Source of the DNA: Podarcis cretensis
Lineage: Eukaryota
Direction of reading: 5' to 3'
Assembly (NCBI GenBank): GCA_951804945.1
Contig: OX638163.1
Span: 37,448,001 to 37,512,000, forward strand
Length of the DNA: 64,000 bases
Part shown: positions 1 to 58,133 of the stretch, one piece after another
How the letters are laid out: the number at the start of each line of letters is the position of its first letter
Numbering within the stretch: the first letter of the stretch is position 1
The notes under the pieces: generated by a model
What the model saw: only the letters and a program-made list of their open reading frames with translations
Databases searched by the model: none
What the model was told of the DNA's origin: nothing
Program-made: the position numbers and the translations under genes

Positions 1-818
1 TTGACTTTTTTTCCTTTGAAATTAAAAGACAAGCCTTGTGGAAATTCCCACCTGAAAGGTATGTTGTTCTTCTTCAGCAGGTCAACCAGATTCTTAAAAT
101 AGGTTCTTACCTCCAGAATGTATTTTGGGATGTCCTTGTAAATTTGAACAGAAGCATTTCCAATCTGAAGGGTTCTCTGGTAATGTAAGTTTAAGATTTT
201 ATCTCTTTCCTCTTTGGATCTCAAAGTTATCAGACAATCCCTTGGAATCTTCCTGCCTTCCCTTCTGCCCAATCTGAAGGCGGTTGTTATCTTAAAGTCA
301 TCTCCCTTTGAATTTACCTGCCAGAATTCTGATAACTCTTTTGTGAGAAAATCCACTAGGTTGTCCCCTTCACTTTCAGGGACCAGCCTAAATTTCAGAT
401 TCCTCTCTTTCCTCTGCATCTCCCACAAAGACAGGGCCGCCTCATGTTGGTCCAACTTCTTGCAGACTGGTATTAAACTTTCCTGTGTATTTTCAGCAGT
501 AGCTTTAGCCTCTTCTGCAATTTTTCGAATTGTAGCATTTTCTTGAACCAATTTATTTATAGTTTCTGTGTTAGATGTAATACTTTTCGTATTCAAGTCC
601 AATTTTGTTGTAAGTTCTGTCAATTGTTTGGTATTCTCCGTGCTCTGCTTGGTCAGGTTTTCTAAAGATTCATTTATTTTGCGTAATGCTTGAGTCACTG
701 ATTCCACGAATACGTTTGTTCCTTTCTCCTGTCCAGCTAAGCCTGATATTGAACCTCTTTTCTTTTGTGCAGCTTTAGCCTTAGATCTAGTTGTTATGTC
801 TTCTGCGGAACCACTCAT
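1..818 (-). CDS. L1 ORF1p (coiled coil, RRM, CTD), truncated by the window edge; absent from the ORF track because no stop lies in the window
   Basis: Manual translation from ATG at 818: MSGSAEDITTRSKAKAAQKKRGS...RKERNLKFRLVPE...DFKITTAFRLGR...RDCLITLRSKEERDKIL...IYKDIPK...IPFRWEFPQGLSFNFKGKKV, open for 272 codons. It matches copy B motifs (DFKIVTAFRLGR, IPFRWEFPQGLSFNFKGKK). Confidence 0.88.
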   Translation of the reverse strand, partial: MSGSAEDITTRSKAKAAQKKRGSISGLAGQEKGTNVFVESVTQALRKINESLENLTKQSTENTKQLTELTTKLDLNTKSITSNTETINKLVQENATIRKIAEEAKATAENTQESLIPVCKKLDQHEAALSLWEMQRKERNLKFRLVPESEGDNLVDFLTKELSEFWQVNSKGDDFKITTAFRLGRREGRKIPRDCLITLRSKEERDKILNLHYQRTLQIGNASVQIYKDIPKYILEVRTYFKNLVDLLKKNNIPFRWEFPQGLSFNFKGKKV

Positions 819-1778
819 GTCCCAAGGTCGTTCCCACAGGAACAGCTCTTAAGTGGAAAAATCCAGTGACTTGTTTTTATTTGACAGTCTATGTTACAAG
901 CTGTAGCCTTTCAACCCTCTAGAGGGAGCAATACATTATATCCAGTAAGCCGAAGAAACAAAGAAACCAAAAGCCCTCTTGGAAAAAAAGCTTTCAGTCT
1001 TCTAATTGCAACAGTATTTATTTCTATAAAGTCCCAAAAATTGTATCTGTAAAGTCCCAAAAATTGTATCAATTTTAGGCTCTCCGCTTTGCAACAGGTT
1101 CTATCAGACAGTTCCTGTCAAAGCGCTTCACCCAGGCAGTCCGTTCCCAGAGTCAGAGACAGCAGAAATTAATCACTTGAATTTCCTCTCTCGCAGGTTA
1201 AGCCAAATTTCCTTTTCTCCCCCCCCTGCTCCTGCTTGCTGGAGGGGTAGTTAAAGTTCAATGCCAAAGTTAGGTAATTCAAAAGTTCAAAGTTACTTTT
1301 CCTTCAATTGCAGCTCTCCAGTTCCGTTGCTTTAAAAGCCATGCAAACCGAGGGAGGCAGACTTCCTTTATTTACCAACCCCGTTTTCAGCCAGATTTCA
1401 AGCGTGTTTTCTTTTCGTTTTTTTGTGTGTAATCCCAGTAGGTTTCCCAATCCTACTTACGGGTATTTCAATTTCAGTCCAGATTTCAGGAAGGAATCGG
1501 CGCTCTCCGCTTATGGCGACGCGGCTTCACTTCACGGGCTGGGTAGCGACTCTCAGCACCACGATCCCCCGATGCTCCTCCGGAGCCTTTAAAAAGGCTC
1601 TTTTGCAGTAAAGGGGGGCGCAAAAGGTGCCCACCGAGTCTCCTTGTTCACAGGCTTCTGCGCCTGTGATTTTAGGGGTCTCCGCTTCGCCGTAGCGGTC
1701 AGACCCGAACTCGTGAAGCAGCCCTCTCTCCGGAGATCGGGGAGAGAGCCGCCATTCAGCGCTGGCGCCGACCGGAAG
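1..1778 (-). mobile_element. L1-clade LINE (copy A): complete 5' UTR and most of ORF1; continues beyond the window start
   Basis: Minus-strand ORF1 is homologous to ORF1 of the full-length L1 at 30253-36396. The CpG-rich 5' UTR shares many blocks with it and ends in the same CTTCCGG..AATGGCGG start. Confidence 0.9.
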
Positions 1779-2003
1779 TCCGGGTGCAAGTAGATAAATA
1801 GGGACCGCTTACCAGCGGGAAGGTAAACGGCGTTTCCGTGTGCTGCGCTGGCTCGCTAGCTGCAGCTTCGTCACGCTGGCCACATGACCCGGAAGTGTCT
1901 TCGGACAGCGCTGGCTCCCGGCCTCTAGAGTGAGATGAGCACACAACCCTAGAGTCTGTCAAGACTGGCCCGTATGGGCAGGGGTACCTTTACCTTTACC
2001 TTT
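1779..2003 (+). mobile_element. Sauria SINE, 3' part (probably interrupted by the L1 copy A insertion)
   Basis: Near-identical to the 3' two-thirds of the SINEs at 15453 and 42820; ends in GGGGTACCTTTACCTTTACCTTT. Confidence 0.9.
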
Positions 2004-15452: not shown

Positions 15453-15822
15453 ACGCAGGTGGCGCTGTGGGTTAAAGCCTCAGCGCCTAGGACTTGCCGA
15501 TCGAAAGGTCGGCGGTTCGAATCCCTGCGGCGGGGTGCGCTCCTGCTGCTCGGTCCCAGCGCCTGCCAACCTAGCAGTTCGAAAGCACCTCCGGGTGCAA
15601 GTAGATAAATAGGGACCGCTTACCAGCGGGAAGGTAAACGGCGTTTCCGTGTGCGGCTCTGGCTCTGGCTCTGGCCAGAGCAGCGATGTCACGCTGGCCA
15701 CGTGACCCGGAAGTGTCTCCGGACAGCACTGGCCCCTGGCCTCTTAAGTGAGATGGGCGCACAACCCCAGAGTCTGTCAAGACTGGCCCGTACGGGCAGG
15801 GGTACCTTTACCTTTACCTTTA
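15453..15822 (+). mobile_element. Sauria SINE, nearly full length
   Basis: tRNA-like A box (GGTGGCGCTGTGG) and B box (GGTTCGAATCC), (ACCTTT)n tail, flanking direct repeat TACTAATAC (15446-15454 / 15821-15829). Confidence 0.93.
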
Positions 15823-20490: not shown

Positions 20491-20785
20491 GATGAGAATT
20501 TCTCTGTTAGTTATATGATCTATATGGCACCCTTTGCAAGAACAAAAAAACAAAAAAAAACAAAACCCCATCAAACTGAGTAACAACACTGAGTAATAAT
20601 ACATAAATAAAAATGTGAAAATATTAAAACAAAATTTCACTAATAAATCAACATAAATCAATATGTTTGGGTAAGAGAGCCCAGCACTCAAAGGCATAGA
20701 GGAAGAGGATGGCTTTCAGCCAGTCCCAAAAGATGGACAAGGACTGTGCCAAATGGACCTTTGTTCCAGAACTAGAGTCCCATTA

Positions 20786-21027
20786 CAGTGGTACCTCGGG
20801 TTACAGATGCTTCAGGTTACAGACGCTTCAGGTTACAGACTCTGCTAACCCAGAAATAGTACCTCGGGTTAAGAACTTTGCTTCAGGTTGAGAATAGAAA
20901 TAATGCAGCAGCGGTGCGGCGGTGGCAGGAGGCCCCATTAGCTAAAGTGGTGCTTCAGATTAAGAACAGTTTCAGGTTAAGAACAGACCTCCGGAACAAA
21001 TTAAGTTCTTAACCTGAGGTACCACTG
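20786..21027 (+). mobile_element. Tc1/mariner-pogo (Tigger-like) MITE
   Basis: TA TSD, TIR CAGTGGTACCTC...GAGGTACCACTG, internal CAGGTTACAGA repeats; inverted second copy at 48843-49084. Confidence 0.9.
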
Positions 21028-23897
21028 TACTGACTATTGAGCAAATAGAGCTGTTGGCTGGGCCCAACTTCTCCACCCATGATGATAGGGAGGCAGGGGA
21101 GTGAATGGCAGATGCCCCAAATAATATCAGTCAGATGCTGCAGGTTGGCTCGTCTGCTTGGAAACCACAGCCTTTCAAAACCTAGTTTTCTGTGCTTCTG
21201 CAGTGGAAGGGACTCTCGGCAAATGCAATGATAGAAAGCTTGCTATCTTATTCCCATTAAGACTCAGCATACTGATTCATGCTTAATGTGCACACCTGAA
21301 AGCCTGTGTCCGCCTTCTCTCTGTCTTCATCTTGTAATCCACATCAAAGATTACCTTAATCGCCAAGAAGGTAACAAGGAGACCTGTGCATTTGGAACAG
21401 CTCTATTTATTGATAAGCCATGGAGCAGCAGACAATCTGTGCCTATCACTGGAGCATATCACGGCAGCCAGGAAGGTATTTTTCATCTTTTGGATTCTAT
21501 AGGAGTCTCTTGTGTAGAGCAAAATGCCCTGAAGCCCTCAGACTTCTTTCAGCGATTCATTCGCTTTGTTGTTCGTTTCTGAAGAATCAACCAGCAATCA
21601 TTACTGCAGACGTTCTTTACAAAGAAACAAGATTCCCCCCCCCCATCCTGCTATGGGAAGAGAGCAGAAAAGGAGAAGGAAACTAAATTAACAGTATGGA
21701 GGATTTCCCCCCTATATTGGATATTTAGCTCGTTTGTTCCATCAGCTTGTAACAGAAGGCAGAGCAATTACCTTTGAATTAGGAAGACAGTAAGACTGTG
21801 AATGGTCAGCAATCAACTATAAACCTTATTCCCCCCTCCCAGAAAAATGCCATGGTATGCTTGTAATATTTCCTAGGGTACAGCCTGACTTACTCAAAAG
21901 TAAGTCTAGCTGAATTCAATGAGTTTTTATATCCAAGTAAGTATTGTCATTGAGGGCAAAGTGTCATTGCTTCCATGAGCTGGAATCAGTGCAGGGCAGA
22001 TGTGGAGAACCTCTGGCCCTCTGACTATTGATGCCAACTCCCATCAGCCACAACCAGCATGGCCAGTGGTCAGGGGTGATGGGACATATCATCCAGAAAC
22101 ATCTGAAGGTTTAATTATGTGTCCTCTTATCTTATCTAGCCTTCCAGATAATTCTTGGTGTGTATGCACCATGGTGTGCTGGCAACTATATAGAAGAGCA
22201 AACCATGGACACACATCCTTTCAGCCTTCTTCTCCATAGGCTTCTAGCTTAGAATATTAGTGATCCACAAAGTGGAATGTTCAGGAGGAGGTAGCTATCT
22301 GGATGTTTGTGTGGTGTCACTTGTTCCTTCTTCATCAGGATTAAGTCCACAGATGAGCAAGAGAATATGGTTTTACTCATGTCCAGCTTTCAAATTTCCC
22401 ACATGCATCTGGCTAGCCACTGTTAAAACAGGATGCTGGGCTAAATGGGTCTTTGACCTAATCCAGCAGACTGGTCTTATGTTCTTATTTTGCCTGTTCT
22501 CTGTCAATGCTTGCTGCAGCACACTGACATGAAAAGGGAGACTCCCTTGCATGCATGCATGCATGCACGCAGCCATTACTCCCTCTGCAAACAGATCTCT
22601 TGTTCAGAATGTGAGTAATATGGGACTGCAGCATTAGCAGTTGGCAGAGATCAGTATGGGTTGACAGATAAATCAGTATGTGTTCAGGTGAAATAATAGA
22701 GACCGCTTCCTTCCCTCCCTGTTGCAGGTGGTCCTTAGTGTGCATGTACTACAATGCACTTGCCAGTACATGGAATGATACTAGAGAAAAGAGAAAGAAT
22801 CAAAGCTAAGTTGTTGTTCTTAGAAAACAGTTCTTTTATTTTTTTTAAAAAATGACACACATGAAATTGAGAGGGGGGAAGAAACAAGGGCTTTGGAGAT
22901 TTCACAATGCATCCTGATTATATGCAATTTTCTGGGATTTACTAGAAGAAAATAGCTCTTCTCTCATTCTCTGTTTGAATTTTGTTTGTGGCTGCATGTG
23001 AGGTTTTAAGACTATGACTTTAGAAGCTAAAAAATCCCCTGCAAGCATTAATGTCCCTTGCAGATTCACAATGCTTTTACATTATTCATTTATTTATTGG
23101 ATCTATTTGAAAGGGGGAGGGGATAAATTCACTCCATGAAGTTGAAATCAGATTTGGTGGTGTATTGTGTATGTACCATGCTGCTGTTCCTAACAGAGAA
23201 GTTAAGCTGTTGGGCTCAGCTGGCAACAGCTCAATCTGTGCCTGGTAATCCTTGCAATAATCCATTGTGCTTGTCTGGAAGATTTTATTCTAGAGCTAAA
23301 ATAACCAGTGGGGAAGGATGGTTTCAAATTTGCTTGGGAGGAAAAAGCTTCAGAAGGAATGGTTTTTGAAAGATAACAGCATGCCTTTAAATTAATCAAG
23401 ATATTAGTACTGAATGCATCCAGATTCATAACTGGGAAATTTACAAGGGAGGACTCAAGACTTCCACTTGAGCCTATAACTCCACTAATGTTTTGAGGCC
23501 AGCTCTTAATGGCTTCACTGTGGTGTCAGCATTCCACCTCACCATACAGACCTTCTTGCTGCTGGTCCCATCTTTCTCCAAGCATCCGCTTATGCAGAAA
23601 GGTGGCAGTCGCAGGAAAGGCTCATGATGTTAATCAAAGTGTCAGCTCTATATGCGGCTATTGCTTCTGGGGAGCACGAGACAAGGATTTCCCAATGCCA
23701 ATCATCCAGGGAAGGGGAAGAAAATATGTTTGGAATGTGAACTAGTTGTTCCACACATTCCAAAGGAAAATGCAACCAAGAAACACCTCTCTTCTGAAAT
23801 TTGCACTTTTCTGAATTTTGTGCTGTAATAGTGTTGCAACTATATTAGTCTTTTAAAGTCTGAATCTGTGAAGAAAATCAATGTTATAAAATGAGAG

Positions 23898-28500: not shown

Positions 28501-30610
28501 TCATCCTCCTCATCATCATATTTTATTTGTATGCCACCTTTCCACAGTTAAAAAAAAACAATGCTCAAGGCGGCTTACAGGCTTACAGCATAACAAGATT
28601 TACTAAATTACAACAACAAAAAAAGATTTACTAAATTACAAAAAGTCATAAACAATAAATAAACCACATCAAAAAATACACAACCAAATTGAAAACAATT
28701 CCCACATAAATCAAAATCTAAAACTAAGAAAACAGCATTAATATCACAGTTTAAAATGACATAGGTAAAAAAATAGTAATTTAAACAAAACCAAAACAAA
28801 ACGGAGCCCTCTCTGCCCAGCAGCAGCAGCAGCAGCAGCAGCCGTCCCTTACAGAGCCCATCAGGCCCCGCCCTGGGCCAGGGGTTGAGTGGCAGTATTG
28901 GGGCCCTCAGGCACTGAGAAGGGGAGTCCTCAATATGAGGACAATGTTTCCTGACTAATCATTCCCTTCACTCTGAGTGGGCTTCATTGTGTTGCAACAT
29001 AGTTAAATTTTCTTTGGTCTGTGATATCATTATCCTTGGAAGAATAATTATTATTTCCAATCTTTGTGTGTGTCTCTCTCCTCTCTCTGTCTCTTTCTCT
29101 CTCTCAAACACAGCTGTCAGTAGGGAGTGTGAACACCAGCAATCAGGTGAATCAGCTACCAGTTGTAGGTCCTTTGGGAAAGCTTTGCATTCCCCTTTAA
29201 AAACTGATGCCCCCCACCCCTGCCTGCCAGCAAATGTTCATTGGAAAACATTTGTCTCAGCCCTAATCATAAATGTACGTTTTATTTAATCAGACACTCC
29301 TTGTTCCCAATAAAGAAGACCTCAGTAGTCAGCGAGAGCCAGATATGTGTTGTGACATATGAATAGCTAGTTGAGAAGAAAGGTTGCTGTACTCTCTGTG
29401 CCTATGGCGCCTTATCATTATATTTTAGTCAGGGAAAAGAATGCCCAGGAGATAGTCATTAATAACCAACATTATGAGTTTGAGCAGACATGGAGCAGGG
29501 AATATGCAGTCTCCATTCCATTGCGTCTTTGGGGTGCTCAAAGGCTCTCCCAGAATATTTCTGGGAGTGATTAGCATTCAGCTGTGTAAAAGCACATGAA
29601 AGGAGATGCAGAGCTTGGTGCAGCATCAAAGTGAAGGTCAGTCTCTTTTAAAGCCCTCCTGGGCCCTCGCTTGCAGGGCAGTGAAGAATGTGATCTGGCA
29701 ACATTGCAAGGGCAGCTAGGGGTTTATTTAAAGGTACGGAAAACTGACAATCTCTAAGAATGGTTGGGTGGCTGTGTAATACCCCCACCTCCCAATGCTC
29801 ACATTCACACCCGTTTCTCCAAGTGGTGAGAAATTCCAGGGAGATGGTTACCTGCATTTGTGTTAATTCAGAGGAGACAGCACTGAAGAGGAATTCCACT
29901 CACTAAAGCAAGACTTACTTCCGAGCAAACAAGTATAGGCATATACTGCATATGTGCCTTTGTCATTTTTGCTTTATTTCTAAATATAGAAGTGGAACGC
30001 ATCTAGTCCCTACCACTGGCCATGGGGAAGTTTCCAAGAAGAGCATCACCACAAGAAGAAAACCAGCCTGGTCCCATCCATTGGGTAAAGAAAGAACAGC
30101 TGTTTGGAGCTTGCTTTGCCAATCCCTGAAAGAAATAACACTCTGCCCAGAACTACCAGTTGCCCTGGGACCGTGTAACTAAAGAAAACATGCTCTGATA
30201 CCATTCATCAGCCAGAGAACTGAGGACTGCTAGTGTGTGTGTGTTACTTCTGTTTTTTTTCTTTTTTATAAATATTTTATTAAATTTTCAAAAATACATA
30301 ATAAAAAGAGAAAAATATAACCAACCATTCAACATAACTTTTCTTATATAACTAGCTGGACTTCCTCGCGTCTCCTTACCCTGCGTTATTTATAATCAAT
30401 ATGTCAGCAAATTATTACCTTATTTCATACCTTATTTTGTACTTTCCAAATATTATACTTCTAAATTTAAACTAATTTTTATCAATTGCTCATACCTTAA
30501 AATTAAACCAAATATTGCCTTAAATTTTGACCTTTTCTTACTTATAACTTAATTTTCTATTTTACAAAGTCTATTTGCTGGAGCTGGTATTTTCTAAATC
30601 GTGCAAATAC

Positions 30611-33600
30611 TTAACATTCATACAACTTATAATATTTTTGTAGATAATCCTTAAACTTCTTCCAGTCCTCTTCCATTGTTTCTTCTCCCAAGTCTCGGAT
30701 TCTGCCAGTCATTTCAGCCAGTTCCATATAGTCTATCAATTGCGTCTGCCACTCTTCCAGTGTGGGCAAGTCTTGTGTCTTCCAGTACTTTGCAATGAGT
30801 ATTCTTGCTGCTGTTGTCGCATACATAAAAAAGCTTCTATCCTTCTTTAACACTTTCTGGCCGACAATGCCCAAGAGGAAAGCCTCCGGTTTCTTAACAA
30901 AGGTATATTTAAATACCTTTTTTAGTTCATTATAGATCATTTCCCAGAAGGCTTTCACTTTAGGGCATGTCCACCAGAGGTGAAAGAATGTCCCCTCAGC
31001 TTCTCTACATTTCCAACATTTATTGTCAGACAGGTGATATATTTTTGCAAGCTTGACTGGGGTCATATACCACCTATATATCATTTTCATAATATTCTCC
31101 TTCAGAGCATTACATGCCGTGAATTTTATTCCGGTGGTCCATAACCTTTCCCAGTCCTCAAACATAATGTTATACCCTATATCCTGAGCCCATTTTATCA
31201 TGGCTGATTTAACAGTCTCATCCTGTGTGTTCCATTTAAGCAGCAAGTTATACATTCTCGAAAGTACCTTAGTCTTTGGTTCGAACAGTTCTGTCTCTAA
31301 TTTCGACTTCTCCACCTGGAATCCTATCTTTTTGTCCAATTTAAAAACCTCTTGGATTTGGGCGTAATGTAACCAATCTTGCACCTTATTCTTTAATTTC
31401 TCCAAGCTCTGCAACCTCCATTTGTCTCCAATTTTTTCTATTAATTCCCAATATTTCGGCCAGCGGGCCTCCATATTGAGCCTCTTCCGGGCCTTAGCCT
31501 CCATTGGTGATAACCATCTCGGGGTCTTACTTTCTAATAAGTCTTTATATTTTGTCCAAACAATAAATATTGCTTTTCTGACAATATGGTTTTTGAACAT
31601 TTTATGAATCTTTACCTTGTCGTACCACAAGTATGCATGCCAACCAAAAGCATTGTTAAACCCTTCCAGATCTAGGACATCAGTGTTCTCAAGAAGTAAC
31701 CAATCTTTCATCCAGCAGAAAGCTGCAGCTTCATAATATAACTTTAAATCTGGCAGGGCAAACCCCCCCCCTCTTTTGCATCCGTTAATATTTTAAATTT
31801 TATTCGGGGCTTTTTGCCCTGCCAGACAAACCTAGAGATATCTTTCTGCCATTTTCCAAAACATTCCACTCTGTCCACAATCTGTAGGGTTTGAAACAAA
31901 AACAACATCCTTGGCAATACATTCATCTTTATAGCTGCAATTCGACCCAGCAAGGAAAGTTTCAATCTTGACCAAATTTCTAAATCCTTTTTAATTTCTG
32001 ACCAACATTTTTCATAATTATCTTTAAATAGATTCAAATTTTTAGCAGTCAAATTAACCCCTAGGTACTTCACTTTTTTAACCACATTTAACTCTGTCTC
32101 ATTCTGAAACCTTTCTGCTTCCGAAGATGTCAGATTTTTTACCAAAACCTTAGTTTTTTGCTTATTCAATTTGAATCCCGCCACCCGACCAAACTCATAT
32201 ATCAGTTCCAAAACTCTTTTCGTACTAGATTCTGGCTCCTGTAATGTTATTACCAAGTCATCTGCAAAGGCTTTCAGTTTATACTGTTTCACTCCGACCT
32301 GTATTCCTTGCACCAACCGGTCCTCCCTAATCATGTTCAAAAGCACCTCTAGGACTGAAATAAATAACAGAGGGGATAAGGGACAACCTTGTCGTGTTCC
32401 TTTTCAATTTTAAACTCTTCTGTCACCACATTGTTAACTATCAATTTAGCTTTTTGCTCTGAATAAATTGCCTCTATTCCATTTTCAAACCCCCGTCCCA
32501 CTCCCATCCCTTCCAAGTTTTTCTTCATAAACCTCCAAGAAATATTGTCAAAGGCCTTCTCCGCATCAATAAAGATTAACACTGCTTTTGTGTTAATATT
32601 AGTTTGCAAAAGTTCCAAAATGTCTATAATGTTCCTGGTATTATCAAACAAATGTCTACCTGGAAGAAAGCCTGCCTGATCTTTATGAATTACTTCATTT
32701 AACACTTTTTTAAATCTACTTGCCAAAATATCCGCAAAGATTTTATAATTCACATTTAGGAGTGAGATGGGACGGTAGTTCTTAAGTTGAGTCTTTTCAG
32801 ATTCCACTTTAGGTATCAATGTGATGAAAGCTTCTTTCCACGATTCCGGTGCCTTCTTCCCCTCCATGATCTGGTTACAGACCTCCATTAGTGGTTGTGT
32901 CAGAAAATCTTTCAATGTCTTGTAATACTTGGAGGTAAAACCATCAGGTCCTGGAGATTTGCCTAGTTGCATATTCTGAATGGCACCCTCAATTTCTTGT
33001 TGCGTTATTCTATCATTTAGGATTGTTCTCTTTTCCTGGGATAATTTTGGTAGTCCATAAATTTTTAGGAAATGATCTATCTCAATCTCTTCCTGCGGCC
33101 CTTGCATATAAAGTTGTTTGAAGTATCTCTGGAAGCACTTTCTAATTTCCTCTGGTTTCTGGATATTCTTCCCTTCAATCTCTAAATTGGTAACCGTGTT
33201 CAATTTTTGTCTCTTTTTCAACTGCCATGCCAGCAGTTTCCCACACTTATTTGCTGATTCAAATGATCTTTGTTTCATCTGTTTAATTTTCCACTCAACT
33301 TCTTGATTTATCAATTTAGCATATTGTGCTTGATAAAATTTAATTTCTCTCAGAACCTCCTGTGATTTAGGTTTTGATCTCAATTTTTTCTCACCATCTC
33401 TTATCTTGTCTAAAATCTTATCCTTTTTTTCATTCCAAAGTCTTTTCTTTATTGTGTTCTGTTGTATCAAAAACCCTCTCATAACTGCTTTACTTGCGTC
33501 CCAGATTATTCTTTTTTCCACCGTAGTATTCAAATTTATTTCAAAATAGTCTTTTAAAGTTTTTTGGGCCTTCTTAACAATCTCCTGATCTCTTAATAGG

Positions 33601-34349
33601 GTGTCATTCATTTTCCATCTGAAGGAACCGGTTGGAATAAGTCTCATTTCCACTTTCATAGCATTATGGTCGGAGCAGGTTTTTGGGCAGATCTCCACTT
33701 TTCTAGTCTTAGGTGCCAGTCCTCTAGTTATCCATATTTGGTCGATTCTTGTCCATGACAGGTGGGCTTCAGAAAAGAAGGTTCCTTCTCTGCCTAAGGG
33801 GTTCTTTGTCCTCCATATATCAATCAAATCCATATTGTCAGTTAGTTCAAAGAAAGTTTTAGGTAGTCTGCTGTCATTTGTTAAATTTTGATTTTGTGAC
33901 TTATCCATATTTGTAGAGACCACTCCATTCATATCTCCCATCATAATGATGTTGGTATAGTCCAGATAGTCCAGAATTGTCTCATGCAGTTTCCTGTAAA
34001 ATTCTGATTTCCCCTCATTCGGCGCATAAATTCCTAATATTAAAAACTTTTCTCCTTGGGCCTGTATTTCAATTGCCAAAATTCTTCCTTGCTCATCTTT
34101 AAATAAGAGTTTTGGTGACAGGCTCTCCTTTGCATAAATCACCACACCTCTTTTCTTAACTTTGTCCGATGAAATAAATTCTTGGCCTAGTCTTTTATTA
34201 ATTAACACTTTTCTATGAAGCCTAGTCACATGTGTTTCCTGCAAGCAAATAATGTCCAATTGTTCTTTTTTCAATATGTGAAAAATTCTTCTTCTTTTTT
34301 CTGGGGAATTTCCGCCATTTATATTCCAACTAAGAAGCTGCAGAGACAT
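30611..34349 (-). CDS. L1 ORF2p (APE endonuclease, reverse transcriptase, CCHC), ~1246 aa after repairing two single-base deletions
   Basis: EN motifs SWNING, CLQETH, IYAPN, GDMN, RID, SDH; RT motifs KSPGPDG, YRPISLLN, QAGF, IDAEKAFD, GTRQGCPLSP (across the frameshift), AFADD, KYLG; zinc knuckle CWKC-x8-H-x4-C. Split into ORFs 32349-34349, 31744-32346 and 30611-31711. Confidence 0.95.
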
Positions 34350-34363
34350 CCTGGATCAGTCTG

Positions 34364-35256
34364 TTAGTCCTGTGGTGGCGTCTCTTTCTTTTGATCCTCT
34401 GGTCCCGAGGGTGTAGGTGCAGGTGTAGGTATAGGTGGAGGTGGTGGCCAAGATCCTGTTGTTCCTTTCTGTAGGTCCTCTTCGTGGTCGTTCAAAAACT
34501 TTTGTTGATCCTCTGCTGTTTTGATTTTAATTTTCTTTCCTTTGAAGTTGAAGGATAGTCCTTGAGGAAACTCCCACCTAAAGGGAATTGAGTTGCTTCT
34601 CAGTAGTCTTGTTAATTCTATATAAGTATCTCTAAGGTCCAAAAGTTGTTTCGGGATATCTTTGTAGATTTCTGCCTTGATGCCTTGAATAATAAGTGAT
34701 TTTCCGAAATGAAGGCCTAGTATTTTATCTCTCTCTTGCTTAGATCTCAAGATGATCAGACAGTCTCTGGATCTGTCCTTCCTCACCACTCTTCCCAATC
34801 TAAAAGCAGTTACAATTTTAAAGTCCTTGTCTTCTTCTATACCCCAGAATTTTGTGATTTCTGATGTCAGATAACCAATCAGGTCTTCCTGTTCAAGTTC
34901 TGGGATAGCTCTCAACCTAAGATTATTTTCCCTATTCTTCAGTTCCGTCATAGCCAGGTAAACCTGCTGTTCCTTGATCTGTTTGCGCAAGGGGTTTACC
35001 TCCACTTTTAATACATCAACTTTCTGATTGGCTGCCTCTGCTTTCTGATTGGCTTCCTCAGCCAATTTACGATTTTCCACAGTTGCTTCCTGAATATTCC
35101 CAATTGCTTGTGTATGTTGAGCAACTTGATCGGTCAGTTTGCTAATAGTGGCTGTTGCTGGTCAATTTTGGACGAATGCTCATCTGCCTTTTTATTCAAA
35201 ATTGCCAGTTGTTCCAAAATTTGCTTTAAAACTGTATCAGATTCTCCAGATGCCAT
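34364..35256 (-). CDS. L1 ORF1p, ~297 aa from the first in-frame ATG after repairing one single-base deletion at ~35155
   Basis: Coiled coil followed by RENNLRLRAIPE, AFRLGR, IYKDIP, FRWEFP. ORFs 35134-35337 and 34364-35080 join if one A is added. The start codon is uncertain. Confidence 0.85.
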
Positions 35257-36059
35257 ATCCTTTGGTACAGTTTGCGCAACTACCTCTTCTTGTACTATAA
35301 CAGCTGGGACAGAAGATCTGCGTGGCTGAGAAGTCAAAGTTGTTTGTACTAGTTGTTTAGCTTTCGTTTTAGCCGCTCTTGCTTTCCCTGTGCCACTCTT
35401 TCCAATCCTGTCTACGTGCCAAGGTTAAGTTATATACAGTCCCGTGGGAAAGACATTTCCAAAAAGTAAACAACAAGGCAGCAGAAAGTCAAAACAAAAT
35501 ACAGTTCCCAAAGAATTGTGAATCCAAAGTCCTCTAGAGGGAGTACAATTATACTTCAGTAGAAAGAAAGAACTGTTCCGCCATTAACATCCCAGCAGTT
35601 AAAAACAAATTTAAAGAGAGCCTTCAGATTCCCTTTAGGTTGTAGAGCTTCCTCAATGTTGAAACAAAGTCTTAAAAGATGTGCAAGATACAGTTCCCCA
35701 AATTGTAGCTAAGCTGTAACGCTCAAATGTAGCACTTTCAGAATTGAATACGTTTTCAGCAATTTGACAGCTCTTTGTTGCCCCGGCAGTCCGGGACTTT
35801 GGGCTTCTCAGTTATTTGTAAGTCCACAAAGGAAAGGAGAGGTCCAATCCTAAGCCAACAAAATTAAAGCAAAATTGTCTCTTTTCAAAAACAAAGTTCA
35901 ATTATTGCACGAAATTCCACACTTTTTACAGCCTTTTTTAAATGCTTCCAGCTGTCAAAGTCTTTACTTTAATCCTTTAAGCACGGTAAGGAGACGGACT
36001 TCCTGGTTACGTCTCCCGCTTTCAGCCAAATTTCAATCACTTTAGTCCCAAATCTTTTT

Positions 36060-36396
36060 AAAATCCCCTACTCACGGGTTTGTAGTTTAGAGTCTGATGT
36101 TCCAGGAAAAAAGGTCGGCGCTCAGCAGCAGCAGCCGCGCGGCTTCACTTCCGCAGAAAGAGCGATGAACTCACAGCACCGCTCCCCCTTCCACGCTCCG
36201 GAGCCCCTTACGGGGTTCCTTCTTCGTTTCTGGGGGGGCTTCTGGTGCCCGCCGAGTCCCACGGCCACAGGCTCACTCTGCCTGTGGTTTTTCTTGATGG
36301 GTCTCCGCTTTGCCGTAGCGGACGACCCTTTCCTGCGGAGCCCCTCTTCACAGCGCGAAGAGGACCGCCATTGCCGTTTCGCGCCGCCTCCGGAAG
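36060..36396 (-). promoter_or_regulatory. L1 internal CpG-rich promoter with terminal ETS (CTTCCGG) and YY1-like (AATGGCGG) motifs; equivalent region in copy A at 1450-1778
   Basis: High CpG density; the motifs lie at the same position in both L1 copies. Confidence 0.65.
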
Positions 36397-39142
36397 TGTG
36401 TGTGTTACTTCTGAAAGGTTATGTTTGTTACATGTTGCCCTGAGAATCATCTGTTCAACATATACAAATATCCATCTCCCACAAGGCAGAAGCTCTACTA
36501 CCCTGCATCAGATCTCCAGAGAGTGACATCAGCTAACTTACAACTTTCTTTGCCTGAGTCTGTTCCAAACAGCAAGCTGTTGTATGCATGCACAAGTACT
36601 CACATGATATTGACTCCCCCTATACAGTAGGAACAGAATGTCACCTTCTCCAAGTTCTGAATGTCTTTCTTGTTGGAAAAGTTACAAGTAGATAATGCAT
36701 ATGAAGCACAGTGCATACTTGTAGATGCAACAGAAGTTTTAAACATTTCCACGGTATCCTGAGGCAGGGATAGCCAACACAGTGCCCTCCATATGTTGCT
36801 GGACTACAACTCTCATTATCCTTAATTTGGCTATGCTTGCTGAGGCTGAGAGTTGGCATGCAGCAACATCTGGAGGGCACCAGGTTGGATTCCCCTGCTC
36901 TAAGGTTACCTAACCACACTGAACATGCTGAGATACTACAACAATAAGTGATTGTATTCTTACAACCATCCCTTTAGTAGGGAGATTGCTTGCTGCTATT
37001 ACTACCCGAGAATGTTACATGATGACTATTCACCATGGGAGCCATGTAAGGCACTCACCTCATCAGAGCACTGGCACTGACAACAGGTTTGAACAAGACT
37101 TGGTCCCACATTAATTTCAGTCATTCATTTATTTTCAGCATGGCTAAAAGAACAATTCTAAAACTATTCAGAAGTGAGTCCTATTTAATTAAATGGGTCT
37201 TACTTCCACATAAGTGGACTCTGGATTGCAGTTTTACATTGGATCCACTCCTATGTCATAATGCAGTGTCCAAACTGATGCACTTCAATTTTTAAAAGTT
37301 AACATTTTGGTTCTTACTACATTGGCTCTTCAATTTTGAAAAATGTCTACCTCTGTATATGTGGGGAAAAGTCAGGCATTAACTGTTCAGCCTTTGGCCT
37401 TCAGAATCTGTGAAAGGTATAAAGAAGGTCAAGTTTCAGAACAGGGTTAATTGTGAGAACCTCTTAGTGCTGGAGGATTGACTTCTAAAATGGGATTAGT
37501 AAAGTTTAAGTTGATAGATTGTGTCACCTCATTCCAAAGTAATCTTAGCTTTTGACACTGTCTATGATCACTTGCAGTTTGGGCAAAATGGAGCGGGCAG
37601 ATCTGGGGAATTACAGAGAAAACTAGAACCTTGTAGTCAGAGATTTGTCTGGTTAATTCAAGTCAATATGTGAAATTGCCTCGGTTCCTGTCTCTGCTGC
37701 TCCCTTCTTTAGACTTCCTCCTTCTTCACCTAACCTTCACCCAGGTTTCTGTATCTCAGTCCTTCACTACTCTGCACCCTTACTTCTGCCACGTTACATC
37801 TGAGGTCCTTGACCTTTTCATCAAGGGACTTATTTTCAGACTTATTTTAACAAGCACTTAAAAGCTCCTTCCTTCCTTCCTTCCTTCCTTCAGACTTGTC
37901 TGAGGTTTGCATTCTCTTACAGAATCTGAACTGCAAACCTCCTAACTTTGTTTGCTAAGAATGTTTGTTAACATTTTGTGTCATCACACCTTCTCATCCT
38001 GTAAGTGGATGAGAATGAAGCCAAATGTCTCAGTTAGTTCTATTTTCATTTGTTCCAAATGCCCTACATGTTCAGCATCACTATAGGTACACATAACTCA
38101 AGAGGATCGAGGATTCATGTGTAGGAATAGCAGCTGGTATAGAATGGCAACAATGAGTCCTATATAGTGGCCAGGTTGTAGTGGTAAAGTAGCATTGTAC
38201 AAAAATGGCCTTTTGAAACTCTCCACTGTGTGCGTGGACAAAGAAGTTGAAGGGACCATTTTACCAAATTTATGCAGAAGCATAGAAAATTCTCCAGGCA
38301 TTAATTAGGATTGCGGCTCCCCATTAGCAATGACAAATATATATATATTTCTTTAGGGGGGTTGGGGGGGTGTTATTCAGCAACAGCAACAACTGCATTG
38401 GCATCCCAGTTGCCATTTTGCACCACTTATAAAGCATTGTGGGAGGAAAAATGGTATATGCCACAAAAAAGTGGCAGAGAAAACTCAAAGAAAATTCCGG
38501 GGCAGTGGTAGTGAAAAAAGAAAGAAAAATCTCAGAAATTTTCTTAGAAAAATGCCCTTTGTTCCTCTGTTCCAAAGATCTTGAAGTCTGATTCATGTTA
38601 GTTTGAGTGAAATTTCCCTTTTTCAACCCAACATCTTCAACCTATCCTGAAACAATTGCAGAGGGGCCCCCTTTATAAAAAAGAATATTGTAGTCACGGC
38701 AGAAACTTTGTACCAGGATTGTACGAGCTTGACTTGTGAAACTAATTAGACAAAGAACCTGCTCAAGAGTTTGCGGCAAGTCTGAAGGATGTGTCATATC
38801 AGGCTGAAATGTCGAATGAGGTGGGATCCCTCCCCCTTGTGTGGCTGCTTTTGCTGAGAGAGTGCGAACTGCCAATCTAGCTCAAGCTTGTGGGCTGAGA
38901 GATGGGAGGATGTAGCAAAGTGTCAAAAGCGCAAAAGGCCAGCCATGTACTACTGCACTATGAAAGAAGTTGTTAGCCTAATGAGTTTGCCAAAGTGCCT
39001 AACACTTGGGGGAATTGTCAGCATTTCCATCAATGCTGAATTTAACCTGAAGGCTTCGATCCAGCAGATGAGCGATCTTGTTGGCATCAGCAAATAGACA
39101 GAGAGCCCCACGGCAGCTTAGTGGATAACTAGTCTGTTGTTT

Positions 39143-42819: not shown

Positions 42820-43183
42820 GGGACGCAGGTGGCGCTGTGGGTTAAAGCCTCAGCGCCTAGGGCTTGCCGGTCAAAAGGTCGGCGGTTCGAATCCCTGCGG
42901 CGGGGTGCGCTCCCGCTGCTCGGTCCCAGCGCCTGCCAACCTAGTAGTTCGAAAGCACCCCCGGGTACAAGTAGATAAATAGGGACCGCTTACCAGCGGG
43001 AAGGTAAACAGCGTTTCCGTGTGCGGCTCTGGCTCGCCAGAGCAGCGATGTCACGTTGGCCACGTGACCCGGAAGTGTCTCCAAACAGCGCTGGCCCCTG
43101 GCCTCTTAAGTGAGATGGGCGCACAACCCCAGAGTCTGTCAAGACTGGCCCGTACGGGCAGGGGTACCTTTACCTTTTACCTT
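42820..43183 (+). mobile_element. Sauria SINE, full length
   Basis: GGGACGCAGGTGGCGC start, A and B boxes, ACCTTT tail, perfect 12-bp TSD TAATTAATTGTG (42808-42819, 43184-43195). Confidence 0.95.
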
Positions 43184-48338: not shown

Positions 48339-48842
48339 TATTATCATGTTCAAATTAATCTTCCATCAGATCTCCATGCTCACAGGTCAAGACAGGGGGG
48401 GAACAGAGCCAATGTAGGCTTTCTCACATCCCTTACATACTTGCATGGCCTTCTGAATGTTTAAAGAACGTTCTTATTGGTACAACATTGTGGAAACCAT
48501 AGAACAGATTTTTACTATTTGGGGCACCCAATTTACCAAATATGTTCAAGTGTCTGTGGTCAAATATTAAACACTGAAATGAAATACCATTGGGTGCCTA
48601 ATATAGATATTCACTCCACACTGACACCATGCATTTAAAGCACTATTATACCACTGAAACAGTCATGGCTTCCCCAAAAGAATTGTGGAAACTGTAGCTT
48701 GTTAAGGGTGCTGAGTGTAATTAGGAGGCCCACAATTCCTCTCACATTTTTGGGAGTGGTTTAACTATCCATTCCTCTTGCCAGTAAACTCTTGAAATTG
48801 ATGGCGTGAACTCATGGTGGTTTTGTGTTACTATTAGTATTA

Positions 48843-49084
48843 CAGTGGTACCTCAGGTTAAGTATTTAATTCGTTCCTGAGGTCCGTTCTTAACCTGAAA
48901 CTATTCTTAACCTGAAGCACCACTTTAGCTAATGGGGCCTCCTGCTGCTGCCGCACTGCCGGAGCACGATTTCTGTTCTCAACCTGAAGCAAAGTTCTTA
49001 ACCCGAGGTACTATTTCTGGGTTAGCAGAGTCTGTAACCTGAAGCATATGTAACCTGAAGCATATGTAACCCGAGGTATCACTG
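48843..49084 (-). mobile_element. Tc1/mariner-pogo MITE, inverted copy of 20786-21027
   Basis: TA TSD, TIR CAGTGGTACCTC / GAGGTATCACTG, high similarity to the 20786 copy. Confidence 0.9.
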
Positions 49085-49089
49085 TATTC

Positions 49090-50260: not shown

Positions 50261-50980
50261 TATTATTATTTGTTTTTTGTTTTTCAAATTTCATTTGCTT
50301 TTACTGACTTTATTTTTATTCTTCCCACCTTCATTTTCTCTGTTAAGTTTGCAAGCAATGATGAAAATAGCAACAGCAACAATTGTTTTAAGAAAATATC
50401 TGGAGGGTACTAGGGGGTGTAATCTAGGGCGTGTACAATGCAAAAAATGTAATGAAGAGTTTGTTTTAGAACAATTTTACTTTAGTTCTGGTCATAAATT
50501 GTGCAGTGTGTGAAATAGCAAAACTGGTTTGATGTTCCAGGGGGTGGGGGTCTGTGTCTGCCTATGGTAGTGGCTTGTTTCTCTCAAATATCCTTTGCGT
50601 TATTTTATCAACTTCCAATCACAGTTGGGTGAGATTGCAACTCTTGTGTCTCTGCATGGCAGGTCAGACGAATGGTTCCCTCTGAAGCCCCTGACAATGA
50701 GACAAACAGGAATACATTGCAGTTGGAACGGCAAGGCCCCAGGAGCCAGAGTGTCATTGCTGTGACGGCCTCCAATGGCTGGAGACTTGGGAACTCTGGC
50801 TCTTTCTTGAACTGGGGTCACTTGACTGGCATGTCTGCCGGTCTCCTGGGTGGCCCTGAGCTGGCTTTCTGCAGCAGGATGAAAGTGTCAGCAGAATTTT
50901 TTTAAAGCACCCTGAATCACATTTTGAGGAAAGGAGGGAAGAACATCTCTTGCTTGAATTTGCTTTCTGTTTAATATTTC

Positions 50981-51308
50981 TCGAAAGGTCGGCGGTTCGA
51001 ATCCCTGCGGCGGGGTGCACTCCCGCTGCTCGGTCCCAGCGCCTGCCAACCTAGCAGTTCGAAAGCACCTCCGGGTGCAAGTAGATAAATAGGGACCGCT
51101 TACCAGCGGGAAGGTAAACGGCGTTTCCGTGTGCGGCTCTGGCTCTGGCTCTGGCTCTGGCCAGAGCAGCGATGTCACGCTGGCCACGTGACCCGGAAGT
51201 GTCTCCGGACAGCGCTGGCCCCTGGCCTCTTAAGTGAGATGGGCGCACAACCCCAGAGTCTGTCAAGACTGGCCCGTACGGGCAGGGGTACCTTTACCTT
51301 TTTTACCT
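50981..51308 (+). mobile_element. Sauria SINE, 5'-truncated (starts just before the B box)
   Basis: Near-identical to the 15453 copy; ACCTTT tail; no obvious TSD. Confidence 0.93.
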
Positions 51309-56914: not shown

Positions 56915-58133
56915 AAGGGAGTTAGACAAAAGTTGTTTTGGTGGCTTTAACAGAGGATTGAGCAAATTCATGGAGGATAAGGCCACAACTGTCAGAGGCA
57001 GTATAGTTACTGGGAATCCTGTTTGACCGCTTTGAGAACAGGATGCTGGACTAGATTGGCATTTGGCTTGATCCACGGAATTCTTCTTATTTTTCTGCAT
57101 TTCTTCTGGATAACAGGATAAGAACCCTTCATGCACAGGAACTGAGTGCAAGGGCTTTCGGCCCTTTAGCTTAATGGAAATGAATGCTATGTCAACAAGT
57201 TAAATTAATAATATTGCATTCCTCTGAGAAATGTTGGCATCTAGAGTGGACACCATAAGGCCCCTGCTTCAACAGTGGGGATGCTGCCAATCCCTGGAGC
57301 CTCTGTGTCCTGCTCCTCCTCCTATCTGCTGCTGCTACTGCTGCTTATACACTCACCTTCTCTAAGAAAGCAATAAAGAAAAGGGGGAGAGCAATAACTT
57401 CCCTGCGGAGAGGTGTGAATTGGACCCAGAAGGAGAGGAAAATGACTAGGCAATGGTAGCAATGGTGCTGATGAAGGAAGAGGAGGACGAAATATTAATA
57501 GAATAGACTTACTGAGAACATCTTGTTGACCTACTCCTCCTCCTCCCCCCACAAAGCAAACCCACCCTGGAACTGATTCTTTAACTAGTTGTGTGAATCT
57601 GAGCTATGTTTTCTGTCCAGCACTTGGAAGAAAAAGAAGCAAATAAAATATGTCCTGGTGTGGTCCTGGTGAGTCTGTTCAGTGCCTGGATAAGTGACTG
57701 CCTAGCAACCAAATGTCCACCATCTTGGGTTCCATGGTGGAGAATCATATGAAGTTAATGTAAGGAAATAAATAAACACAATATTTTCATGCAATTTTAT
57801 AACCCTTGAATACAAGGCATGGAAACAGAAAGCTGCTCAGTTCTAGGGCTGTCTGAGCAATAACAGCCTCCAAAATTTCACTGTCCTATTTATGAATTGC
57901 AACACTGAAGGAGAGTGGGCTTGAGAGTGGGCAGGAGAAATTTCTCAGAAATTTCTTTCTTTAGGAATTTCAGCTCAGCTTATACTGTATGATCCTATTC
58001 TTAGTATATTCTGAAGGATGCAGGACAAAATAGGCTATGGGGGGAAGGAGTAGGGACTATGGACACTAATTCTGTCAGCAATATTCAAATATAAACACTG
58101 TTATTCCTGAAATTTTCCATGCTATCCACAGAT

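Follow-up and report, generated by a model that had tools for sequence, protein, structure and literature searches.

Does the long 5′ UTR of lizard L1 retrotransposons contain an intron, and if its apparent splice sites are under selection, what do they do for the element? L1 is regarded as intronless, and splicing within its 5′ UTR as a dead end. The question is raised by two L1 copies, A and B, on the minus strand of the window, by which we mean the whole 64,000-nt stretch of Podarcis cretensis DNA analysed here (GenBank assembly GCA_951804945.1, contig OX638163.1, positions 37,448,001 to 37,512,000). In each copy a donor-like GT and an acceptor-like AG enclose 542 nt of the 5′ UTR (Table 1), and a first-pass annotation had proposed from these sites a selected spliceosomal intron.

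That L1 5′ UTRs can contain splice sites, and other non-LTR elements introns, is already known. The donor G98U99 of the human L1 5′ UTR is conserved across subfamilies, is mostly left unspliced and overlaps a RUNX3 site, and its splicing yields spliced integrated copies (SpIREs), about 2% of full-length copies (Larson et al. 2018, PMC5860796). As in the lizard copies with their putative sites, a sense donor is followed by downstream acceptors, and a copy made from spliced RNA would lack part of the internal promoter. The human donor, however, lies at nt 98, whereas the lizard donor lies at the far edge of a CpG island (nt 237-364) with unrelated flanks, and splicing and spliced copies have been demonstrated in human L1, whereas for lizard L1 neither was found among the joints listed below or in the two window copies. 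Introns have also been described in TART, where they are antisense, and in L1, Tad, kangaroo-1, Penelope and Athena (Maxwell et al. 2006, PMC1636488). Like the lizard L1s, TART has kept the spacing of its splice sites much the same although its UTRs have diverged; its introns are antisense, short and established by RACE and ESTs, whereas the lizard L1s have one putative sense interval.

The two L1 copies

Copy B is a decayed full-length element in which ORF1 is followed, 14 nt past its stop, by an ORF2 with an APE endonuclease and a reverse transcriptase domain (PF03372, EN; PF00078, RT), and which is flanked by a 16-nt target-site duplication (36398-36413 and 30237-30252), as expected for the L1 clade. 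Judged by the relatives P0019 and P0020, ORF1 of family B starts near 35400 and not at the ATG at 35256. Copy A begins at 1780 and leaves the window within ORF1, with only its 5′ UTR and ORF1 inside. The closest relative of its ORF1 is a Podarcis muralis protein with 71% identity, and one ORF1 relative is annotated 'L1 RRM domain-containing'. The ORF1 sequences of the two copies share 54% identity over 140 aa, which bears out the first-pass view that the two families are clearly diverged.

By their 5′ ends the elements resemble lizard clade 1 L1, for which Anolis carolinensis 5′ UTRs of 792-1465 nt have been reported (Boissinot and Sookdeo 2016, PMC5381506). The 5′ UTRs of the window copies are 962 and 997 nt long, and with the anole families described there they share the long UTR, the very short inter-ORF region and conserved UTR blocks between divergent families, and the 5′ end is of a similar GACTTCCGG...ATGGCG form. 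The clade 1 motifs GACTTCCGGTG and ATGGCG are found in both copies, with a spacer longer than the published N8 and the ATG at nt 26-27. Unlike most of the anole families, which have two CpG islands, the window copies have one clear island: CpG is dense only over nt 1-320 and then falls to 0-3 per 80 nt.

Several further repeats were observed in the window. The 5′ end of copy A interrupts a SINE-like repeat (1780-1997), which we take to be a Sauria SINE, and copies of this repeat at 15453-15815, 42823-43177 and 50933-51301 run on past the break. Two 246-nt copies with internal short repeats (20784-21029 and 48841-49086), 91% alike and in opposite orientation, appear from their sequence to be a small dispersed element. 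A weak tblastn match (E 0.01) at 57035-57181 on the minus strand to relatives of L1 ORF1, in their C-terminal part, is possibly an old fragment or a chance match. No Rfam match was found in the 64 kb.

Table 1. Features of the two L1 copies in window coordinates, with positions of GTRAG in anole L1 consensuses given as nt from the start of the consensus. A slash marks the putative splice boundary.
Feature	Position	Strand	Description
Copy A ORF1	3..818	-	open, 272 codons, up to the window edge
Copy A leader	819..918	-	100 nt from acceptor-like site to ORF1 ATG
Copy A acceptor-like block	915..947	-	palindrome 916-925; branch candidates -28 and -18
Copy A GT..AG interval	919..1460	-	542 nt; 2 ATG and 2 AATAAA inside
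Copy A conserved block within interval	1361..1401	-	1401-1380, and GGAAGT at 1366
Copy A donor block	1452..1464	-	ACCC/GTAAGTAGG; GT at 1460-1459
Copy A CpG-rich first segment (putative exon 1)	1461..1780	-	320 nt, 27 CpG; 5′ end GACTTCCGG
Copy B, full-length L1	30253..36397	-	6145 nt, decayed; ORF1 and ORF2 frameshifted; TSD, Pfam domains
Copy B ORF2	30611..34349	-	three pieces (endonuclease, reverse transcriptase, C-terminal part)
Copy B ORF1, broken	34364..35400	-	start-homologous position not ATG; frameshift near 35158; relatives P0019, P0020
Copy B leader	35401..35533	-	133 nt from acceptor-like site to ORF1-start-homologous position; one uATG at 35456
Copy B acceptor-like block	35530..35561	-	TACTG..TATAAT..CTCCCTCTAG/AGG; 10-nt palindrome 35531-35540; branch candidates -23 and -16
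Copy B GT..AG interval	35534..36075	-	542 nt, AT-rich, ATG-poor, apparently retained
Copy B conserved block within interval	35998..36036	-	promoter-like; 22-nt block 36036-36015, and GGAAGT at 36003
Copy B donor block	36067..36079	-	ACCC/GTGAGTAGG; GT at 36075-36074
Copy B CpG-rich first segment (putative exon 1)	36076..36397	-	322 nt, 28 CpG; 5′ end ACTTCCGG; ATGGCGG motif
GTRAG, AC1 and AC3b	AC1 nt 290; AC3b nt 299		by eye; AC3b also near 180
GTRAG, AC7 and AC8	AC7 nt 298 and 322; AC8 nt 294 and 318		by eye
GTRAG, AC9 and AC11	AC9 nt 359; AC11 nt 360		by eye; AC9 UTR non-homologous
GTRAG, AC12, AC14 and AC15	AC12 nt 364; AC14 nt 342; AC15 nt 237		by eye

The 542-nt interval

On re-check of the sequence, the coordinates and the 542-nt length given for both intervals proved correct, and both window copies retain the full interval, with no precise deletion in either. 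The exact equality of length, which had been offered as an argument for a conserved intron, is unusable. The alignment of the two intervals contains 13 gap runs with 53 gap columns per side, and at 36005-36015, within the interval, 1-2 nt are inserted in contigs from related copies; since the indel runs cancel and sister copies differ in length, the equality is probably a coincidence. The distal halves of the UTRs had been described as largely unalignable, and were found to be alignable in blocks, with 52.6% identity over 489 aligned columns.

Across the whole UTR the two copies share seven colinear blocks (at least 13 nt, at most one mismatch per 13-mer), one of which is the donor, one the acceptor and two of which lie within the interval. 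Two of the seven are therefore sense splice sites and five are not. The internal block of copy B at 35998-36036 (Table 1) is kept in diverged relatives too, and its GGAAGT is presumably ETS-like. Such conserved non-splice blocks within the interval indicate that DNA motifs are also under selection in this UTR. Sense polyadenylation signals within the UTR number 15 in copy B and three in copy A. As separate observations, the copy A interval contains a short tandem duplication with a period of 23 nt (1027-1068, minus strand), and GGGAA.TGTA, which in our view resembles the ZNF143/THAP11 promoter motif, occurs twice in the copy B UTR (35698 and 35509, minus strand) and is absent from that of copy A.

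The donor-like site and its counterparts in anoles

The donor motif claimed for both copies is present, as CCC/GTAAGTAGG with GT at 1460 and CCC/GTGAGTAGG with GT at 36075, and the full donor and acceptor motifs each occur only at these two places in the 64 kb. The donor lies at nt 321 and 323 from the L1 5′ end, where CpG and GC fall in both copies. It is complementary to U1 at 8 of 11 positions, continuously from +1 to +7, and by U1 match it ranks first in the copy B UTR and tied first in that of copy A; by a rough weight matrix it ranks 3 of 33 (A UTR) and 6 of 55 (B UTR). The lacertid donors have no exonic AG. Relatives in two sequence runs show a change at +8 and none at +1 to +7 among the 40 rows listed, with 601 further rows outside that list, and +3 toggles between A and G in copy A versus copy B and in the sister families AC12 versus AC14, as the donor consensus allows. 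Local folding gave no consistent signal, the donor being open in copy B (96th percentile) and not in copy A (42nd).

The first 400 nt of each of the 55 L1 consensuses in the supplement of PMC5381506 were compared, with GTRAG counted by eye. The word is found within nt 237-364 in all nine Anolis carolinensis clade 1 families (Table 1), and within nt 230-370 in nine of the 46 other vertebrate consensuses (mammals 3/14, frog 3/12, zebrafish 3/17, lizard clade 2 0/3), a control rate near the 0.21 expected per 141-nt window from the background of our window. The difference gives a Fisher P of 7.6e-6, or 8.5e-4 when the nine families are collapsed to five lineages, for a window of nt 230-370 that was chosen after the anole positions had been seen and that, if widened, adds about three controls. 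Taken over all of the first 400 nt, the word is frequent in the controls too (35/46; P 0.18). The flanks of the donor differ between lineages, and GTRAG alone recurs across the anole and lacertid-like families. In six of the eight of these anole families with a published CpG island, it lies 11-55 nt upstream of the end of the first island; in AC15 the island ends at 248 and GTRAG is at 237, the site shifting along with the island. Among the published islands, AC1 and AC15 have one and AC9 has none. The proposal that the donor is selected thus gains independent support from these consensuses, and its conserved position in lizard clade 1 L1 looks to be new.

The word was also seen elsewhere. In copy B ORF2 (30611-34349), GTRAG is rarer than expected (2 versus 7.0). 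Many frog and zebrafish short-UTR consensuses in the same supplement have GTGAG or GTAAG at about nt 18-45, which may belong to the promoter or may bind U1 very early in the transcript. In two of the three short-UTR lizard clade 2 families given there, GTGAGT stands immediately 5′ of the ORF1 ATG (AC17, about nt 210; AC18, about nt 228), where a donor could serve the skipping of ORF1; the inter-ORF regions of these two families are purine-rich, with one short pyrimidine run ending in CAG in AC17.

The acceptor-like site

The acceptor motif CTCCCTCTAG/AGG is likewise present in both copies as had been claimed, with the AG ending at 919 and 35534. By the rough matrix it ranks 3 of 66 in the copy A UTR and 4 of 79 in that of copy B, and both UTRs contain stronger ones. 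The site is a TAG with 72% pyrimidine at -20 to -3; the branch candidates differ between the copies, and copy A has no further AG between -59 and -2. The block is kept in diverged relatives too (runs X15 and X18). Conservation between A and B covers the upstream side (TACTG..TATAAT) and stops directly after AGG. CTCCCTCTAGAGG is the longest colinear exact match between the copies outside the CpG-rich segment, and the chance of a 13-nt exact match at background identity is 0.01-0.10.

The core of the site, CCTCTAGAGG, is a perfect 10-nt palindrome, and on the opposite strand the acceptor score is 6.56 in copy A, against 6.82 in sense, and 2.36 in copy B. Another conserved block resembles an acceptor when read antisense, with scores of 4.86 and 8.73 in the two copies, so that acceptor likeness of a conserved block comes easily. 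With its moderate score and palindromic core, and tested in few families, the acceptor is ambiguous. A scan of metagenomes for the acceptor motif found none, and scans for ORF1 in metagenomes and for ORF2 in viral contigs confirmed 0 of 474 stretches and 0 of 6, respectively.

Two Podarcis muralis gene models with an extended ORF1 were considered as splice products of this acceptor and rejected: the foreign sequence joins about 13 codons before the ATG, where the acceptor predicts about 33. These models were read as protein only, and truncation would look alike. Podarcis muralis gene models (P0001, P0021, P0015, P0017 and P0028) also fuse the ORF1 family to other sequence, namely N-terminal extensions, a TRIM39-like RING/B-box protein and a vomeronasal receptor-like protein; such fusions may be exonised L1 pieces or prediction artefacts.

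Upstream ATGs

The two intervals contain four ATGs where 14.0 are expected, which makes ATG the most depleted of the 64 trinucleotides. None of 1000 dinucleotide shuffles gave a count as low, and none of 202 background tiles had two ATGs or fewer; CAT shows no depletion. As a routinely removed intron needs no ATG avoidance, the depletion suggests that the stretch evolved as a scanned leader and that scanning ribosomes use the unspliced RNA, which contradicts the model of the first-pass annotation, in which a spliced mRNA serves for ORF1p and the unspliced RNA is the template. Part of the signal may have another cause, since ATG is also depleted within ORF1 (7 versus 12.9 expected at 1-818 and 4 versus 13.4 at 34364-35256); it is not depleted in ORF2 (91 versus 91.5). 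ATG is scarce everywhere upstream of ORF2, with possible consequences for how ORF2 is translated.

The copy A interval had been said to hold every internal upstream ATG, and both (1342 and 936) do lie inside it, with only the ATG at 1755, which opens an 18-codon uORF, outside. Copy B has one upstream ATG outside the interval, at 35456 (8 codons), before ORF1. A depletion of GGT in the interval was dropped as a signal, since only copy B has the deficit (0 versus 7.2, against 5 versus 5.5 in copy A).

Junctions and read-through in sequence runs

Among the 24 sequence runs listed none was listed as RNA, which speaks neither for nor against splicing. Four of the 24 (X1, X15, X17 and X18), all made up of contigs, three of them guessed to be RNA and X1 DNA-like, were compared with positions 34400-36450; the contigs are uncertain in strand and RNA status, have rare variants dropped and come mostly from diverged relatives. 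The 542-nt joint 35533-36076 is not among the 15 of 19 joints listed, four joints and 223 loose ends being outside that list, and no precise-deletion joint is among those listed for the DNA-like run X1. In the guessed-RNA contigs, which are weak data, read-through at the donor amounts to 93.1 of 100 depth units in X15 and to both of two contigs in X18, and read-through at the acceptor to three of three contigs by depth arithmetic; X17 covers neither site.

The stretch 35573-35917, uncovered in all three guessed-RNA runs, was rejected as a trace of splicing because the contigs belong to diverged relatives and one X18 contig of 1711 nt contains pieces from both sides of the interval and from inside it, at about full spacing. 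A loose end of X18 at 36069, which starts like post-acceptor sequence, is read as an unspliced relative, since the alignment takes in seven interval bases ahead of it and its +8 change is shared by a sister contig. The sole DNA joint listed in the interval, 35549-35963, was rejected as a spliced copy, its ends not being GT..AG. Of the functional 542-nt intron that had been proposed, the GT and AG sites stand in both copies; its removal does not, no junction being listed and the covering contigs, weak data as they are, reading through. Splicing of the interval is unproven, and the sites are putative.

Discussion

The reading that we favour, tentatively and with a confidence a little short of even, is that a promoter-proximal U1-binding site is selected in front of a mostly retained segment and supports transcription. 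The lizard 5′ UTR would then be laid out like the start of a host gene, with a CpG-rich segment of about 320 nt, a 5′ splice site that binds U1 snRNA and an AT-rich segment. By analogy with mammalian work, U1 near the promoter would aid elongation and shield the A-rich transcript from early termination, and selection for this would keep the donor; pairing would be needed for it, and splicing would not. The unspliced RNA, with the 542-nt segment mostly retained, would be both the scanned mRNA and the template for new copies, and the downstream AG may be used in a minority of transcripts, the copying of which would yield elements stripped of the conserved internal motifs. We infer the U1 binding, its benefit and any minor splicing.

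This reading draws on the donor in nine of nine anole families against nine of 46 others, together with its place at nt 321 and 323 here amid differing flanks, and on its proximity to the end of the CpG island, where CpG and GC drop in both window copies. Retention of the segment is favoured by the ATG depletion in the interval, by the intact interval in both copies and by contigs that read through. Counted against it are the counting window set afterwards, the counts made by eye, the missing exonic AG and the matrix ranks, as well as the five of seven conserved blocks that are not sense splice sites and the ATG depletion within ORF1. In addition, GTGAG at nt 20-45 of frog and fish L1 consensuses in the supplement of PMC5381506 indicates that the word can be kept for promoter reasons.

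A mechanism of this kind is described for host genes. A 5′ splice site near the promoter recruits U1, makes elongation faster in mammalian cells and keeps Restrictor from acting, and it does so independently of splicing (Mimoso et al. 2025, PMC12211998). The lizard donor, like that of host mRNAs, lies within the initially transcribed region and could act without splicing; the published effect, however, concerns mammalian genes and reporters, whereas the lacertid donors lack an exonic AG and are known from sequence alone. An intron placed 5′ of L1 ORF2 protects from HUSH even when unspliced, through the intron body and not the splice sites (Seczynska et al. 2021, PMC8770142), and HUSH alone would therefore be no explanation for the conservation of a donor; that study regards natural L1s as intronless. 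It is conceivable, although we consider it unlikely, that a squamate L1 lineage of long standing imitates the first exon and first intron of host genes so as to pass as host mRNA, with the intron left largely unspliced to survive retrotransposition. The host-like layout would consist of the CpG island, the U1 site at its edge, the AT-rich intron-like body and an acceptor 100-133 nt before ORF1, and it would let the element escape the surveillance (Restrictor, early polyadenylation, HUSH) to which transcripts that are intronless or non-coding are subject.

The main rival, which we judge somewhat unlikely, holds that the two splice-like blocks work as promoter elements in the DNA and only look like a donor and an acceptor, with any splicing a rare by-product. 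It has a precedent in human L1, whose donor G98U99 lies within a RUNX3 site (PMC5860796), and it would account for the palindromic acceptor core with its opposite-strand acceptor in copy A, for the second block that is antisense-acceptor-like in both copies, for the further conserved blocks inside the interval and for the absence of the junction among the joints listed. It is less at ease with the donor, of which only GTRAG recurs while the flanks differ, a pattern more readily expected from U1 pairing than from a protein-binding site of greater length, and GTRAG is also found in the non-homologous UTR of AC9; at the acceptor, conservation between A and B is on the upstream side and ends directly behind AGG, as it would at a 3′ splice site.

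A selected and efficiently spliced 542-nt intron, with the spliced RNA as the main ORF1p mRNA and the unspliced RNA as template, would explain why donor and acceptor are among the seven conserved colinear blocks in the right order and strand, with candidate branch points between -16 and -28 and an extended stretch poor in AG, why the acceptor block is kept in diverged relatives in two runs and the donor in anoles, and what would be gained by taking two upstream ATGs out of each copy. The strong ATG depletion is needless under this model, however, and every resolvable covering contig reads through. Given cis preference, an abundant spliced RNA should be copied, and yet the joints listed for the DNA-like run include no 542-nt joint; in human L1, moreover, splicing within the UTR did not raise ORF1p (PMC5860796). 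Copy B would keep an upstream ATG after splicing, and the equality of length is not robust. We regard this model as improbable and, among the functional readings, as the least favoured. Chance and shared ancestry, by which short blocks were inherited by A and B and their splice-like look and the anole positions are coincidental, would suffice if weight is given to there being only two copies in the window, to the chance of a 13-nt exact match, to the expectation of GTRAG in a 141-nt window with P 0.21, to the non-independence of L1 and control consensuses and to the position window set afterwards. The word stands, however, in the same zone in five of five anole lineages of the supplement and in the two window families (P about 1e-3), and tracks the end of the CpG island, and we consider this explanation a little more improbable still.

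A squamate L1 5′ UTR intron or its splice sites did not appear in the titles and abstracts searched, most subscription papers lying outside that search, nor in the available parts of PMC12129022, 10.1101/2025.02.02.635956 and 10.1101/2020.06.13.149070, and the main text of PMC5381506 contains neither 'splic' nor 'intron'.

In conclusion, if the donor is a promoter motif only, the finding shrinks to the known human case. If the donor is kept at one position across lacertid-like and anole families as a U1-binding site, selection would have equipped a retrotransposon with a splice signal that serves the element itself. The host-like layout could then explain a point left open in PMC5381506, namely why the long 5′ UTRs of lizard L1 are conserved whereas those of mammalian L1 have been replaced, and it would do so in a testable way.
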